From the NCBI GenBank assembly GCA_963769935.1, contig CAVYNY010000011.1:544001-608000 (forward strand): a DNA stretch of 64,000 bases, read 5' to 3'. This document shows positions 797 to 61,926 of the stretch, piece by piece. The position numbers and the translations under genes were made by a program. Source of the DNA: an uncultured delta proteobacterium (GTDB lineage Bacteria > Desulfobacterota > Desulfobacteria > Desulfobacterales > JAFDCJ01). The notes below the pieces were generated by a model. It searched no databases. It saw nothing but the letters and a program-made list of their open reading frames with translations, and was not told where the DNA came from. Within the stretch, counting starts at the first letter, position 1. Every line of letters starts with the position of its first letter.

Positions 797-1013
797 CAAA
801 TTCCAAGCACCAAAAGCCAAATTTCAAATAAATCACAATGACCCAAATTCAAAATTCCAAACAAATGATCCTTTCCAAGTCAAACTTATTGGACTTATCT
901 TCGGCACGCCTGGATTCGTGAGTCAAGTTGACACAACGATAGTGCATGTTTTGGTCATTTGATATTGAATATTGAGATTTATTTGTCATTTGGTGCTTGA
1001 AATCTGGGATTTT
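797..1013. repeat. Inverted-arm intergenic element, family A copy 1
   Basis: Left arm caaattccaagcaccaaa... is complementary to right arm ...tttggtgcttgaaatctgggatttt; related copies at 40287 and 61594. Confidence 0.85.
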
Positions 1014-1072
1014 ACCGCCTTATTAAGGTTTTCTGATGGCTGTCAACTATTTTAGTCCAGAGGTTACTAACG

Positions 1073-2000
1073 ATGAAATCTAAGCCCATCATCCTAATCG
1101 CCTTGGGCGGCAACGCCCTGATAAGAAAAGGACAGAAAGGGACCCATAAGGAACAGTTTGTCAATCTAAAGCTGCCGATGCGCCAGATCGCCCGACTGTC
1201 CAGGCAATACAAGTTTGTAATTACCCATGGCAACGGTCCCCAGGTCGGCAATTTACTGCTGCAGCAGGAAAGCTGCGATAAGGTGCCGAAAATGCCGTTG
1301 GAGATCATCGGCGCCATGACCCAGGGCCAAATCGGTTATATGCTTGAGTCCTCGCTGGATGATGCATTGATGGAAATCGGCATCAACGGCGAGCAGCATT
1401 TTGTGACAATGATAACCTACGTCGTGGTGGATCAAAATGATCCGGGTTTTCAAAACCCCACCAAGCCGATCGGACCCGTTTATACCGAAGAGGAGGCGTC
1501 GAAACTGCCGTACACCATGGTCAAAACCGATAAAGGATTTCGGCGCGTGGTCGCATCTCCCATACCGTTAGCCATCGTCGAACGACGCGAGATTAAAAAA
1601 CTCATCGAAATGGATTTCATTGTTATCTGCTGCGGCGGCGGGGGCATACCGGTTATCCGCAAGGAGCGCAAATTTCGCGGGGTTGAGGCGGTGATCGACA
1701 AGGATCTGGCCAGTTCCATCTTGGCCCGGGAAATTAAAGCCGGAAATCTTTGTGATCGCCTCGGACATCGCCGGCGCCGGCATCAACTGGGGCACGCCCG
1801 ACCAGCAAATGCTCGGCAAGGTATCTTTGTCGGAAATGGAGCAGTATGTTAAGGCGGGCCAGTTCCCCGCCGGCTCAATGGGTCCCAAGGTGCAGGCAAT
1901 CGTCGAATTCTTTAAAGAAACCGGCAATCGCGGAATCATCTGCCATCTGGAAGATATTGAAAAATCAATTGCAGGAGAAGCAGGAACGGAAATTTTTTAA
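1073..2000 (+). CDS. arcC: Carbamate kinase (one frameshift near 1740)
   Basis: IALGGNAL, THGNGPQVG, GGGGIPV and VIDKD motifs in ORF 1073; FPAGSMGPKV in ORF 1752..2000. Confidence 0.92.
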
Positions 2001-2022
2001 TATTTTCACGGAGGAATAAATT

Positions 2023-3366
2023 ATGTCCAAAAAAAATGTTATTATTATCGGTGCCGCCGGAAGAGATTTTCAAAACTTCAACACCTATTACCGCGGCAAT
2101 GAAGATTACAACGTGGTGGCCTTCACAGCTGCGCAGATACCGGACATCGAAGGTCGCAAATATCCGGCGGAACTGGCCGGCAGCCTGTATCCGGACGGAA
2201 TACCGATTTATGCGGAAGAAGATCTTCCCGGATTAATCAAGGAGCTGAATGTGGATGACTGTGTGTTTTCATACAGCGATGTCTCCTATCAGCACGTTAT
2301 GTCGGTCGGCGCCATCGTGAACGCGGCCGGTGCTAATTTTGTCATGCTGGGACCGAAAGACACCCAGATCAAGAGCATAAAGCCGGTTATTTCAGTGGGC
2401 GCGGTTCGCACCGGTTGCGGCAAGAGCCAGACCTCGCGCCGTATCATTGAAATCCTGATGGCCAAAGGAGCTTAAAGTCGTCGCCATCCGGCACCCCATG
2501 CCTTACGGTGATCTTGCCGCCCAGAAAGTCCAGCGCTTTGCCGAGTTGTCCGATCTTGAGAAGCACAACTGCACCGTGGAAGAAATGGAAGAATACGAGC
2601 CCCACGTGGTCCGCGGCAACGTCATTTATGCCGGTGTGGATTACGAAGCGATCGTTCGGGCGGCGGAACAAGATCCGGCCGGCTGCGATGTCATTCTGTG
2701 GGACGGCGGCAACAACGACTTTCCGTTTTACAAATCCGATCTGCATGTCACCGTGATCGATCCTCATCGTCCCGGCCATGAAATGACCTATTATCCGGGC
2801 AATGTCACGTTGCGGATGTCCGATGTGGTGGTGATCAATAAAATGGACAGTGCCGATGCCGAAGGTATTGAGATTGTACGCCGCAATATCGCCAGTGAAG
2901 CCCCGGCTGCGATTGTCATCGACGGTGCCTCCACCCTGGATGTGGATGACCCGGCCGTTATCCGCGGCAAGAGAGTCCTGGTGGTGGAAGACGGTCCGAC
3001 CCTGACCCACGGTCGAAATGAAAATCGGCGCCGGAGTGGTGGCGGCCCGCAAGTTCGGGGCCGCTTGAACTCGTCGACCCGCGGCCTTATACGGTGGGCA
3101 GGTTGTCGGAAACCTTTGAGATTTATCCGGAGATCGGGACCGTCCTGCCGGCCATGGGCTACGGTGAGCAGCAGTTAAAGGACCTTGAAGCAACCATCAA
3201 CGCCACCGACTGTGACGCAGTGGTGATCGGCACCCCCATTGATCTGAACCGCATTATAAAAATCGAAAAACCCAACACCCGGGTCTATTACAGCCTGCAG
3301 GAACTCGGCCGGCCGAATTTCGATATGGTACTGGATGATTTCGTAAAGAAACATAAACTGGGATAG
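2023..3366 (+). CDS. arcE: Arginine synthetase (ArcE) / cyclic 2,3-diphosphoglycerate synthase-like family protein; three single-base insertions (~2472, ~3014, ~3066)
   Basis: GAAGRDFxNFN, AFTAAQIPDI, RTGCGKSQT, WDGGNND and EDGPTLTHG motifs spread over ORFs 2023, 2498 and 3094; clustered with OTC and carbamate kinase. Confidence 0.78.
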
Positions 3367-59597: not shown

Positions 59598-59600
59598 AAA

Positions 59601-61523
59601 ATGTCCAGGCCCTTTTATATCACCACCCCGATTTACTATGTCAATGCCCGTCCGCATCTGGGACATGCCTACACCACCATCGTGGCCGATGTGGCGACGC
59701 GTTTCCATACCATGCGCGGTTGCGAGGTTTATTTTTTAACCGGCACCGACGAACATGGCGACAAGGTTGTGCGCGCTGCAAAAAAAGAGAATATGACGCC
59801 CAGAAATTACGTGGACACTATCAGCCAGCTTTTTCGTGATCTTTGGCCGGAATTGAACGTCAACAACAGTGGCTTTATCCGAACCACGGATGCCCCCCAC
59901 ATGGCCGTCGTAGAACAGGTGCTGCAGAAAATCTATGATGCCGGCGATATCTATTTTTCCGAGTACGAAGGGCTATATTGTTTTGGATGCGAGCGCTTCT
60001 ACACCGAACGCGAGCTGGTGGACGGAAAATGTCCGGATCATGAAACCGAACCGGAAGTGATTAAGGAATCCAACTACTTCTTTAAAATGAGCCGGTATCA
60101 GGATTGGTTGGTGGAGCATATCAACAATACACCGGATTTCATCCGCCCTGAAAGATATAAAAACGAGGCACTGGCTTTTCTAAAAGAGCCCCTGGAAGAT
60201 CTGTGTATTTCCAGGCCCAAATCCCGGTTGAAATGGGGCATTACCCTGCCTTTTGACGGCGACTATGTCACCTATGTCTGGTTTGATGCTCTGTTAAACT
60301 ACGTCTCCGCCCTGGGGTATCCGGATGGTGAGCTGTTCAAAACTTTCTGGCCGGAGGCCCAGCACATTGTGGCCAAGGATATCCTTAAACCCCACGGCAT
60401 TTATTGGCCGATCATGCTCAAGGCCGCCGGCATTCCGATCTACCGCCACCTGAATGTTCACGGGTATTGGAATGTCGAGCAAAGCAAAATGTCAAAAAGC
60501 CTCGGCAATGTCGTTGAGCCCCTGGCGCTTAAAAATATTTATGGCCTGGATGCGTTTCGCTTTTTTCTGATTCGGGACATGACATTCGGCCTGGATTCAA
60601 GTTTCAGTGAGGAGTCCCTGATTCAGCGCATCAATGCGGATCTGGCCAATGACCTCGGCAATTTGTTTTCCAGGGTCCTGTCGATGGTGCATAAATATTT
60701 CGAGGGCGTTGTTCCGGAGATTGATCCGGCGGTGGAGCAGGAATGCGAACTCGGTCTGGAAGCAGACGCCCAAAGCGCAATTGCCGAGTATGAACCCCTG
60801 ATGGAATCATTTCAGTTTCACAATGCCCTGCGGGCTGTGTGGCAATTTATCAGCCGCATGAACAAATACGTGGACGTCACGGCTCCCTGGGAGTTGGCCA
60901 AGAAAAAATCAAGCCGCAAATCATTGGCGGTAGTCCTTCACAATCTGCTGGAAGGACTCAGAATTATTTCCGGCCTGATCTATCCGGTGATGCCGGAGAC
61001 TGCCGCCAAAATGCAAAAACATCTCGGATTAAATCCGGACGAGCCATTCTATTTGCTTGATCGGCTCAAATCCTGGAAAGCCATTCAACCCGGCACCCAT
61101 CTGCCGAAGTCCACGGTCCTTTTTCCACGGATCGAACCGGTTGACAACAAAGATGCCCAGGCGGCTAAACAGGAAATACCGGCCCAATACCCTGAGATTA
61201 AACCGGAGATCACAATTGAGCAATTCAGCGCGGTCGACCTGAGAGTGGCAACCGTGGTTCAGGCGGAGACAATCCCCCGAGCCAATAAAATTCTTAAACT
61301 CGAAGTCGATCTGGGGCAAAAACGGATTATCGTGGCGGGCATCGCCGGTACCTATACCCCCGCAGAACTGGTCGGCAAACAGGTGATTGTGGTGGCCAAC
61401 TTAAAGCCGGTCAAACTGATGGGGATTGTCTCCAACGGCATGTTGGTTGCGGCTGTCGGTGATGCCGGCCCCACCCTGGCAACCCTGGACAAACCGGTGG
61501 CGCCCGGAACACCGCTTAGGTGA
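59601..61523 (+). CDS. metG: Methionyl-tRNA synthetase with C-terminal tRNA-binding domain
   Basis: TTPIYYVN, HLGH, GTDEHG, YVWFDAL and KMSKS motifs. Confidence 0.98.
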   Translation: MSRPFYITTPIYYVNARPHLGHAYTTIVADVATRFHTMRGCEVYFLTGTDEHGDKVVRAAKKENMTPRNYVDTISQLFRDLWPELNVNNSGFIRTTDAPHMAVVEQVLQKIYDAGDIYFSEYEGLYCFGCERFYTERELVDGKCPDHETEPEVIKESNYFFKMSRYQDWLVEHINNTPDFIRPERYKNEALAFLKEPLEDLCISRPKSRLKWGITLPFDGDYVTYVWFDALLNYVSALGYPDGELFKTFWPEAQHIVAKDILKPHGIYWPIMLKAAGIPIYRHLNVHGYWNVEQSKMSKSLGNVVEPLALKNIYGLDAFRFFLIRDMTFGLDSSFSEESLIQRINADLANDLGNLFSRVLSMVHKYFEGVVPEIDPAVEQECELGLEADAQSAIAEYEPLMESFQFHNALRAVWQFISRMNKYVDVTAPWELAKKKSSRKSLAVVLHNLLEGLRIISGLIYPVMPETAAKMQKHLGLNPDEPFYLLDRLKSWKAIQPGTHLPKSTVLFPRIEPVDNKDAQAAKQEIPAQYPEIKPEITIEQFSAVDLRVATVVQAETIPRANKILKLEVDLGQKRIIVAGIAGTYTPAELVGKQVIVVANLKPVKLMGIVSNGMLVAAVGDAGPTLATLDKPVAPGTPLR

Positions 61524-61593
61524 ATAAGAATTTCGTTGAGGTGCATTGGAACGACGGGAGCACACTGGGAACAATGGTGTATCGGAATATCGT

Positions 61594-61926
61594 AAATTCC
61601 AAATCACAAATAACAAATATCAAACAAATCACAATGATCAAAATTCGAAATTCGGTCCGCCATCATACAAAAGCTCAGAGCCGCCCGCAGCACATCGGGT
61701 ACATCGGACTTGAGCACACAACGAACGTCTCACTGTAGATAATTTCGTAGCGCGCTAATTGTGTTTGGGTCATTGAATATTGGAATTTGAGATTTGCCTG
61801 CCCTGTTAAATGGGTTCGCGGCATAAGTTGTCAGTCTGATCTTTATTCCTAAAAACGCAGAACGCCGCACCATTAATTGCATTATTTAACAGGGTAAATA
61901 ATTTGGTGCTTGTATTTTGGGATTTT
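61594..61926. repeat. Family A element copy 3 with nested palindromic insert (61801-61898)
   Basis: aaattccaaatcacaaat... / ...atttggtgcttgtattttgggatttt. Confidence 0.85.

Follow-up and report, generated by a model that had tools for sequence, protein, structure and literature searches.

The window, a 64,000-nt stretch of a draft genome from an uncultured delta proteobacterium, contains intergenic hairpins built from tandem 7–9-nt repeats. These hairpins are rather likely to be gene-less derivatives of cassettes carrying PF05635 or GxxExxY genes, and to multiply as DNA in a REPIN-like manner. To our knowledge, intergenic 7–9-nt repeats have been reported repeatedly in bacteria without an origin, and we know of no function for PF05635 and GxxExxY proteins. 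A cassette origin, if true, would explain the heptamer repeats of many bacteria.

Periodic arrays in the genome and in the window

Genome-wide, 860, 449, and 436 arrays of period 7, 8, and 9 were detected, compared with 5, 7, and 30 in sequences shuffled in 100-nt blocks, respectively. Outside the gene calls, which were made with a simple codon model, there were 813, 436, and 306 arrays, respectively. A reverse-complement partner within 700 nt was found for 389 of 1396 intergenic arrays, versus 52–67 in three controls; the majority (1007) were therefore unpaired at that strict threshold. Throughout the genome, arm order was fixed within pairs, repeat groups stayed unmixed within a pair, and the gene-less inverted doublets were extragenic with many copies. 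The genome contained 299 paired elements, compared with seven PF05635 genes. An ORF of at least 60 codons was enclosed in 26 of the 299, namely PF05635 genes in four and host genes or junk frames in the others. Arrays occurred in 678 of the 3117 spacers between co-directional genes and in 69 of the 587 between divergent genes, and for 106 of 260 first arms the distance to a stop codon was 10 nt or less. Since about one-fifth of the co-directional spacers bear arrays, operon spacers, including those of atp and mre/mrd, have been shaped by them.

The earlier note had listed 19 array-bearing spacers in the window. Arrays were present at these coordinates, and 7–9-nt periodicity was significant in 18 of them, being equalled by at most 3 of 60 dinucleotide-preserving shuffles; that of spacer 38330 was matched by 10 of 60, and this spacer is not periodic. 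In 14 spacers, no more than 2 of 30 shuffles equalled the inverted match; in the 61545 spacer, the best match was an inserted palindrome that breaks up the second arm. Arms were unpaired at 19436, 42555, 52345, and 56259, and the arms at 42555 and 56259 each come from two different families. The proposed architecture of one arm followed by its reverse complement applies to the 14 paired spacers and not to the four unpaired ones or 38330. Two example spacers folded with z-scores of −4.25 and −4.04, both with long stems. All 19 loci lie outside the rRNA genes at 8513–14081, and no transposase was found among the 53 ORFs scanned in the window, in agreement with the earlier note.

Elements of the window

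The automatic repeat-unit labels were wrong or missing at some loci. The argF-arcC spacer holds an arm pair of the AAATCAC/AAATTCC family on the plus strand (797–1012; arms 797–847 and 949–1012), whose first arm is made up of the cognate four-helix-bundle gene's leader together with its initial codons. AAATCAC-family pairs were also located at 40285–40512, with a core common to other copies, and on the plus strand in the metG-kdsB spacer (61594–61926), where a palindromic insert (about 61797–61897) splits the second arm. An outer AAGATTG pair in the rodA-bactofilin spacer (26724–27202; arms 26724–26773 and 27124–27202) encloses a plus-strand element of the TGGAATAA family (26776–27110), which is a whole-length copy of a dispersed family with 74–80% identity across about 310 nt. 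Another AAGATTG pair occupies the mreD-mrdA spacer (30473–30676), and a chimeric remnant at 56258–56322 joins a GGATGCT-family first arm to an AAGATTG-family second arm. Further pairs were a TGGAATAA pair between atpG and atpD (21612–21722), a 9-nt GATCGTTGT pair between atpA and atpG (22658–22769), a 9-nt AAAATGCCT pair (53387–53493), and a GTTATTG pair 5′ of gabT (3370–3506; arms 3370–3417 and 3476–3506). The rnj-ftsK locus (45597–45802) combines a 7-nt pair (45597–45619 and 45698–45730) with an unpaired ACCCGCA arm (45749–45802). The composite at 33575–33871 consists of unpaired GGGTTCA and GGGTGCG arms followed by an 8-nt pair (33644–33686 and 33804–33871) enclosing a short palindrome. The unpaired arms were an 8-nt arm of the GGAGTATT family (19436–19459), two arms of the GGGTTCA and ATTCGTC families (42555–42691), and those of the surE-tmk spacer (52345–52512; main array 52426–52512).

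Three loci contain hairpins of the kind associated with GxxExxY genes. The dispersed-family copy in the mrdA-rodA spacer (28340–28540) has a 9-nt CGCAGAG-type hairpin (28423–28499), a type that brackets GxxExxY genes. The element at 58330–58580, which belongs to a roughly 250-nt family with 89–93% identity, has a ACAGGATCA pair (58424–58452 and 58503–58531) resembling GxxExxY-gene arms. An AGGTGTC pair (51281–51675) encloses a module of about 240 nt with a GxxExxY-type hairpin; this module is flanked by AGGTGTCAG-like words in direct orientation and had 19 matches, its own locus included, at 85% identity or more over at least 200 nt. The cores had been described as unrelated, which did not hold throughout: the elements at 51281, 58290, 28360, and 797/40287 and the inner element near 26800 match other loci along their whole length. 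The repeat at 38313–38420, with GTAG/CTAC motifs, is a different small dispersed repeat without periodic arms, which we take to be REP-like.

Association of arms with PF05635 and GxxExxY genes

In this genome, inverted arms bracket six of the seven PF05635 (TIGR02436) genes, the unit differing from gene to gene, and direct arms bracket the seventh. In the genus, 85 of 107 cassettes had flanks that paired with each other better than the 95th percentile of mismatched flanks. The suggestion in the earlier note that similar arms flank Avd/IVS-like four-helix-bundle genes is supported. When the upstream arm of one cassette was compared with the downstream arm of another, pairing was observed in 72–80% of pairs at protein identities of at least 70% and in at most 1% at identities below 30%; among close pairs at different loci, 50 of 66 paired. 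The protein tree was a quick tree of 114 rows and 126 columns, from which rows shorter than 80 residues were excluded. These results show that the repeat unit tracks the protein clade, at different loci as well, and linkage alone can explain this matching.

Flanks of PF05635 cassettes were matched by 18 of the 19 window spacers, compared with 7 of 380 shuffles; 16 of the 18 match arms, and 28360 and 38330 match other small flank repeats. GxxExxY-gene flanks were matched by 58290, 28360, and the inner 51281 hairpin. Four-helix-bundle genes are thus a cargo, as proposed, but not the sole one, GxxExxY genes being a second cargo family represented by these three inner hairpins. Because the window arrays share arms with four-helix-bundle and GxxExxY genes of relatives, the window hairpins are likely emptied copies of such cassettes, which accords with the emptied cargo slots suggested earlier. 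Gene remnants were present at about ten intergenic loci; at C2:15887–16035, both gene ends are fused through an internal deletion. With about ten remnant loci against 299 paired elements, the gene ancestry of most cores is deduced from their arms. For the abundant AAAATGCCT and AGGTGTC families, no cognate gene was found in this genome.

Orthologous spacers in relatives

Alignment of orthologous spacers revealed presence/absence variation and replacement, as would suit the mobile cassettes of the earlier note. The mreD-mrdA spacer is gene-less here, and in the relative G014 nested arms in that spacer enclose a decayed PF05635 gene; this was the only PF05635 gene in 129 spacers scored at nine slots, eight of the spacers being this genome's own. 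In near relatives, the atpG-atpD spacer of one has other sequence in its place, and the rodA-bactofilin AAGATTG pair is missing from one. The atpA-atpG slot carries other arm families or none in relatives, and arm families substitute for one another at orthologous slots. One cassette common to G000, G002, and G003 has decayed vertically. No clean pre-insertion site could be defined for any window element, the sole empty allele resembling an arm remnant.

Orientation and RNA-level features

Gene-bearing cassettes were co-oriented with transcription for all seven PF05635 genes of this genome; in a gene-bearing set of 29, 23 were on the same strand, 2 on the opposite strand, and 4 unscored. Gene-less AAATCAC pairs were sense in 18 cases and antisense in 18. 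In 185 elements, G-U and A-C mismatches on the transcribed strand numbered 248 and 266, respectively, and selection at the RNA level was rejected on the absence of a G-U excess. Folding was slightly better on the transcribed strand (108 vs 71; 108 vs 91 in control spacers). The random orientation of gene-less elements and their lack of G-U strand bias point to DNA-level spread, and the gene-less hairpins likely spread as DNA. These tests move the question from RNA regulation toward DNA mobility. The TGGAATAA family showed an orientation bias relative to GC skew of 20:3 (18:4 in an overlapping set), in one of nine family tests with a weak skew and a draft genome; this bias was absent from the other families.

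IS91-type element and candidate mobilisers

In the relative G007, a unit consisting of arm, PF05635 gene, IS91 transposase, and arm was present in six copies with 99–100% identity at unrelated sites. The copies have unrelated flanks, no target duplication, and GAAC at the left boundary (6/6); the right flanks are A/T-rich without GTTC/CTTG, and the exact right end is uncertain. The element encodes a Y2 HUH transposase with a zinc-binding domain (PF14319 and PF04986), and this gene is interrupted in the copies read. Related units occur in other genomes, one of them without a PF05635 gene, and deleted derivatives are present in this genome. Both IS91-like ends were found on C7:267516–267795, a family relative of the window element 26776–27110; profiles of IS91 ends, built from 2 and 4 sequences, detected no window element at an E-value of 0.5. 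An IS91-type HUH transposase is the likely enzyme for the TGGAATAA family. The mobilising enzyme supposed by the earlier note to be encoded elsewhere was found in relatives for one family, and none was found for the others.

A search for a general mobiliser was negative: in this genome, no arm pairs surrounded 11 Y1 loci, 2 Y2 loci, or the 9 loci that account for 10 reverse-transcriptase matches, none of 11 PF01797 (Y1 HUH) matches had a 7–9-nt array within 900 nt, and 24 other IS91-family loci were without flanking arm pairs. Arm pairs enclosing genes at 300–3000 nt were found in seven cases (4 inward and 3 outward), which we read as chance. In the two families aligned, the target-site duplication expected of a classical MITE was absent apart from direct arm words.

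Proposed origin and alternative explanations

Internally deleted cassettes occur, whole-length copies are numerous in some gene-less families, and elements nest within one another. In the origin we favor, the one place where a cassette would survive is the narrow interval separating a stop codon from the following ribosome-binding site, and the cassette would be expressed through read-through. A deletion of the sequence enclosed by the arms would remove the gene, and the hairpin left behind may then be replicated in one or the other orientation through a single-strand route that recognises hairpins. For families other than TGGAATAA, the cargo proteins acting in trans would be the preferred candidate mobilisers. 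A wider reading, possible but on the unlikely side, is a class of selfish elements in which four-helix-bundle pentamers and GxxExxY nucleases read their own arm code and mobilise hairpins in trans. Dozens of orthogonal protein-repeat pairs of this class would coexist in a single genome, one of them having co-opted an IS91 transposase, and the unexplained intergenic heptamer repeats found across bacteria would derive from it. The tie between repeat unit and protein clade offers a direct test of both questions, namely whether a protein binds its own unit and not that of another clade; the IS91-type unit provides the first candidate enzyme, for one family.

It is unlikely that cassettes arrive solely in gene-bearing form, through horizontal transfer and recombination within the flanking genes, and that empty pairs are immobile corpses left by decay in place. 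The gene remnants, the filled orthologous slot, and the vertically decayed cassette of G000, G002, and G003 would suit such decay, as would rRNA intervening sequences, which the available part of PMC4990558 regards as spreading horizontally; against it are the random orientation of gene-less AAATCAC pairs beside co-oriented gene-bearing cassettes, the near-identical whole-length copies in gene-less families, and 299 pairs for 7 genes. Selection by the host for RNA hairpins, with arm pairing in polycistronic mRNA serving as a signal for RNase III processing, stability, or translation and mobility being secondary, is distinctly unlikely. The preference for co-directional spacers, the proximity to stop codons, the long stems, the small folding advantage of the sense strand, and the cleavage of the Coxiella IVS by RNase III at the first heptamer (same source) fit this idea. 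However, the transcribed strand has no G-U excess, the slots of close relatives are empty or hold other families, no element matched Rfam, and the position of the elements is also expected from insertion tolerance. Incidental cleavage of the hairpins by RNase III is likely even without selection.

A retro-mobile cycle, in which an Avd-like four-helix-bundle protein delivers its own hairpin RNA to a reverse transcriptase of the host and the resulting cDNA is inserted, is quite improbable. The four-helix-bundle fold is presumably common to Avd of diversity-generating retroelements (a PDB search for the fold returned 2GSC and 2RLD only), the genome has ten reverse-transcriptase matches, and the cassettes depend on read-through; yet no reverse-transcriptase gene lies within an arm pair, GxxExxY and IS91 cargoes lacking that fold share the architecture, and pairing shows no bias at the RNA level. 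Very improbable are binding sites for a host nucleoid or regulatory protein (IHF/HU), as proposed for the paired sites of Geobacter: tandem 7/8-mers paired on opposite strands are so annotated in the available part of PMC2700814, but dozens of unrelated units follow cargo-gene clades here, arrays are rarer in divergent promoter spacers, and they turn over between species. An assembly or slippage artefact has a negligible probability. Conserved genes of the assembly contain frameshifts, and arms differ by whole repeat units between the sequences compared; nevertheless, contigs from the X1 and X2 runs match the arms with 0 differences in the region checked (19300–34000; X1 is perhaps the source sample), arm order is fixed, and the same families recur in separately assembled relatives.

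Comparison with known systems

No paper stating the link between genes and arms was found, and subscription journals and supplements may hold one. The paired heptamer arms themselves are already described in Geobacter and Xanthomonas, and the earlier view that the paired-arm design lacks precedent is contradicted by the Geobacter 7/8-mers, the inverted GGGAATC pairs of Xanthomonas, and REPINs. The comparisons below concern the available parts of the cited sources. In Geobacter metallireducens (paired 7/8-mers; PMC2700814), Xanthomonas (GGGAATC; PMC4692102), and Beggiatoaceae (TAACTGA; PMC4679880), intergenic 7–8-nt arrays of about 4–5 units lie near stop and start codons and form opposite-strand pairs at variable distance, similar to those described here. 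Regulator binding, G-quadruplexes, or translational control are proposed in these parts, and the repeats are not connected there with four-helix-bundle or GxxExxY genes.

The S23p IVS of Coxiella, a 23S rRNA intervening sequence with a PF05635/TIGR02436 ORF (PMC4990558), likewise has the same protein family between complementary arms, variable-number tandem heptamers 5′ of the ORF, and ORF decay. In contrast, the window elements lie in mRNA spacers, have many units, are mostly gene-less, and belong to hundreds of copies. The IS91 family of rolling-circle elements, which also has miniature derivatives, has a terIS with a GTTC-type cleavage word (PMC13181058); the TGGAATAA family in relatives shares the Y2 HUH transposase, asymmetric ends, lack of target duplication, GTTC at the transposase-upstream end, and a small ORF just 5′ of tnpA. 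The differences are that one arm family only is concerned, that the small ORF here is PF05635, that no GTTC/CTTG target was seen next to the other end, and that window elements have no significant IS91 end. The REPIN-RAYT system (PMC3337134) resembles the present one in that its gene-less inverted doublets are numerous and extragenic, with a fixed arm order and spacers of variable length, and in that its groups each correspond to a cognate gene of low copy number. Unlike REPINs, whose arms are palindromic REPs and whose cognate genes encode Y1 HUH transposases, the arms here are tandem 7–9-nt arrays and the cognate PF05635/GxxExxY genes lie inside the hairpin.

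Repeat arrays and inverted arm pairs

The window lies in a draft genome of 8.0 Mb and carries the housekeeping operons arc, rRNA, atp, mre/mrd, ftsK-rnj, surE-tmk, lptD, and metG-kdsB. The inverted-arm hairpin elements, in which tandem arrays of 7–9-nt units (arms) flank a core, are real. The array positions reported in an earlier sequence-only note were confirmed. Among the 19 window spacers that it had described as periodic paired arms, 18 were periodic and 14 had a significant inverted match, but 38330 was non-periodic against dinucleotide-preserving shuffles; this locus is a different repeat and was rejected as a periodic-arm element. 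Unpaired arms, which the note had also claimed, occurred in 4 of the 19 spacers. In agreement with its statement that the window has none, no transposase was found among the 53 window ORFs scanned. In the window, the conserved genes arcC, tyrS, rny, and a Pom-family porin gene were split or truncated (1073–1852, 14950–15815, 16404–17468, and 48721–49771), which suggests assembly indel errors or pseudogenes.

The architecture extended over the whole genome. Scanning yielded 860, 449, and 436 arrays at periods 7, 8, and 9 (5, 7, and 30 in shuffles, respectively), the majority outside genes, and 389 of 1396 intergenic arrays had a reverse-complement partner within 700 nt (52–67 in controls), merging into 299 elements. 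Arm order was fixed, with four exceptions among the 45 families listed. Co-directional spacers held arrays in 678 of 3117 cases, convergent ones in 109 of 530, and divergent ones in 69 of 587; a stop codon lay within 10 nt of the first arm in 106 of 260 first arms. Contigs from public sequencing runs, one of which (X1) may be the source sample, matched the arms exactly and carried unit indels of 7 and 8 nt at 26726 and 33821.

Cassette genes whose arms match

The association of such arms with four-helix-bundle genes, suggested in the note, was borne out: 16 window spacers matched the arms of cassettes in which a PF05635/TIGR02436 gene lies between inverted arms, and two further ones matched other repeats within cassette flanks, as against 7 of 380 shuffles. 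This genome has seven PF05635 matches. Six lie between inverted arms, no two with the same unit, and the seventh between direct arms. The one PF05635 protein tested passed the TIGR02436 cut-off and matched the solved proteins 2RLD and 2GSC, and the family was present in all 23 genomes of the genus. Among 116 cassettes, the 107 with full flanks were used for own-flank pairing, which exceeded the 95th percentile of mismatched flanks in 85. Arm cross-pairing between cassettes was 72–80% at protein identities of at least 70% and at most 1% below 30%; the repeat unit tracked the protein tree of PF05635 cassettes, and cross-pairing was retained in 50 of 66 close cassette pairs at different loci. In the AAATCAC family, named by its unit, the gene's leader and first codons constitute the first arm. 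GxxExxY genes (TIGR04256) likewise lie between periodic arms (8–10 nt), and arms of this type matched three window hairpins (28423, the one within 51281, and 58424). About ten gene remnants were found in this genome, one of which joins both gene ends.

The intact GxxExxY gene on contig C8 (188562–188912) has a direct duplication of ~100 nt or more at its flanks instead of simple inverted arms. One PF05635 clade (L039, L050, L103, L106, L117, and L118) had no clear arms and is possibly a domesticated copy; L039 and L050 have an upstream flank in common. The window 23S rRNA gene (8734–11783) is 3050 nt long versus a 2925-position model, and no PF05635 match was found in it.

Gene-less elements

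The cores, described in the note as unrelated, proved in several cases to be common family sequence with whole-length relatives elsewhere in the genome. Counting the own locus, the module inside 51281 had 19 matches at ≥85% identity and 58330–58580 had 10 at ≥80%; whole-length relatives also exist for 28360, 797/40287, and the inner 26800 element. Gene-bearing cassettes shared the direction of the upstream gene in 7 of 7 cases, and in a second set of 29, 23 had the same direction, 2 the opposite, and 4 were unscored. The AAATCAC gene-less pairs were split 18:18, and among the other asymmetric families a sense preference was seen only in the small 58290 set (5:1). Stem mismatches were strand-symmetric, with 248 G-U and 266 A-C in 185 elements and 162 and 148 in 95 cassettes. 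The transcribed strand folded slightly better (108 versus 71 elements; 108 versus 91 control spacers). We read the orientation and mismatch symmetry as pointing to elements that are spread and maintained as DNA.

Modules 51304–51540 and 58330–58580 are young, have a leader and a terminal word in common, and lie in tandem beside AGGTGTC-type arms, a placement that would fit integration via the arm; their leader has 128 matches genome-wide. A short palindromic repeat was inserted into arms at 33722–33770 and 61797–61897 and into the second arm of loci L051 and L054. It was present in two of six otherwise near-identical copies in the relative G007, and is therefore itself recently mobile.

Orthologous spacers in relatives

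The idea of filled and empty slots was upheld by the mreD-mrdA spacer of the relative G014, which carries a broken PF05635 gene inside nested arms and was the sole filled site among 129 spacers scored (nine slots, eight of them this genome's own). Presence/absence variation was likewise found at atpA-atpG: the arms at this slot belonged to at least four families, and some relatives lacked arms there. The mreD-mrdA spacer ranged from −2 to 662 nt across relatives. In organisms 98–99% identical in flanking genes, the atpG-atpD and mreD-mrdA spacers were replaced, and the rodA-bactofilin element was shrunk to 22 other letters. Since the joints carry other letters, these are alleles, not products of splicing.

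IS91-type unit of the TGGAATAA family

G007 carries six copies of a 1.6-kb unit, 99–100% identical, at unrelated sites and without target duplication, and a seventh with an internal deletion. The unit runs from GAAC and a TGGAATAA arm through a PF05635 gene and an interrupted IS91-family transposase gene (PF14319 and PF04986) to the second arm and the other end. IS91 elements are described as making no target duplication, and IS801/IS1294 as cleaved at GTTC, at the IS91-type end terIS (PMC13181058). Related units were found in other genomes with (L165, L173, L174, L177, L183, and L190) or without (L175) the PF05635 gene, and deleted derivatives in this genome at C13:346641 and C24:9987. The gene-less C7:267516–267795 has both IS91-type ends and is related to the nested window element 26776–27110. 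GC-skew bias was seen in the TGGAATAA family only (20:3; 18:4 in an overlapping set). The mobiliser that the note had placed outside the window has a candidate in this IS91-type enzyme for the TGGAATAA family in relatives, but arm pairs were found around none of 24 other IS91 loci and none of this genome's Y1, Y2, or reverse-transcriptase genes. No window element scored with IS91-end profiles. A cautious reading is that one cassette was captured by one IS91 lineage.

L051 and L056 carry a 2.2-kb insertion within the IS91-type element, with a 372-codon frame that presumably resembles an IS110 transposase. Near-identical reverse-transcriptase genes occur in this genome at C11:463309, C17:221555, C11:192203, C13:597130, and C15:145404, three of which directly adjoin Y1 transposase genes.

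Proposed mechanism and relation to known systems

Gene–arm linkage, unit–clade matching, deletion derivatives, gene-less families, nesting, and turnover are established. Cassettes would survive only in the gap between a stop codon and a ribosome-binding site and could lose their gene through deletion between the arms; the hairpins may be copied via a single-strand DNA route, and the arms would decay through slippage. The cargo proteins themselves are candidates for binding or moving their arms. We consider a REPIN-like reading, with gene-less inverted doublets, to be somewhat probable. That the elements merely decay in place is unlikely, and that they are host RNA signals slightly more so. Retro-mobility appears improbable, a role as host binding sites is more doubtful again, and an artefact is hardly credible.

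Paired tandem 7/8-mers on opposite strands have been annotated in Geobacter (PMC2700814). In Xanthomonas, GGGAATC occurs as inverted pairs close to stop codons (PMC4692102), and Beggiatoaceae have TAACTGA arrays (PMC4679880). The Coxiella 23S rRNA intervening sequence (IVS) carries heptamers upstream of its S23p ORF (PMC4990558), and REPIN groups have been matched to RAYTs, their cognate Y1 transposases (PMC3337134). A literature search of openly accessible article texts found no published link of arms to PF05635 or GxxExxY genes. The hairpin elements appear to work like a REPIN system, yet fall outside REPINs; they appear to have a cassette ancestor in common with ORF-bearing IVSs, yet are not IVSs themselves.
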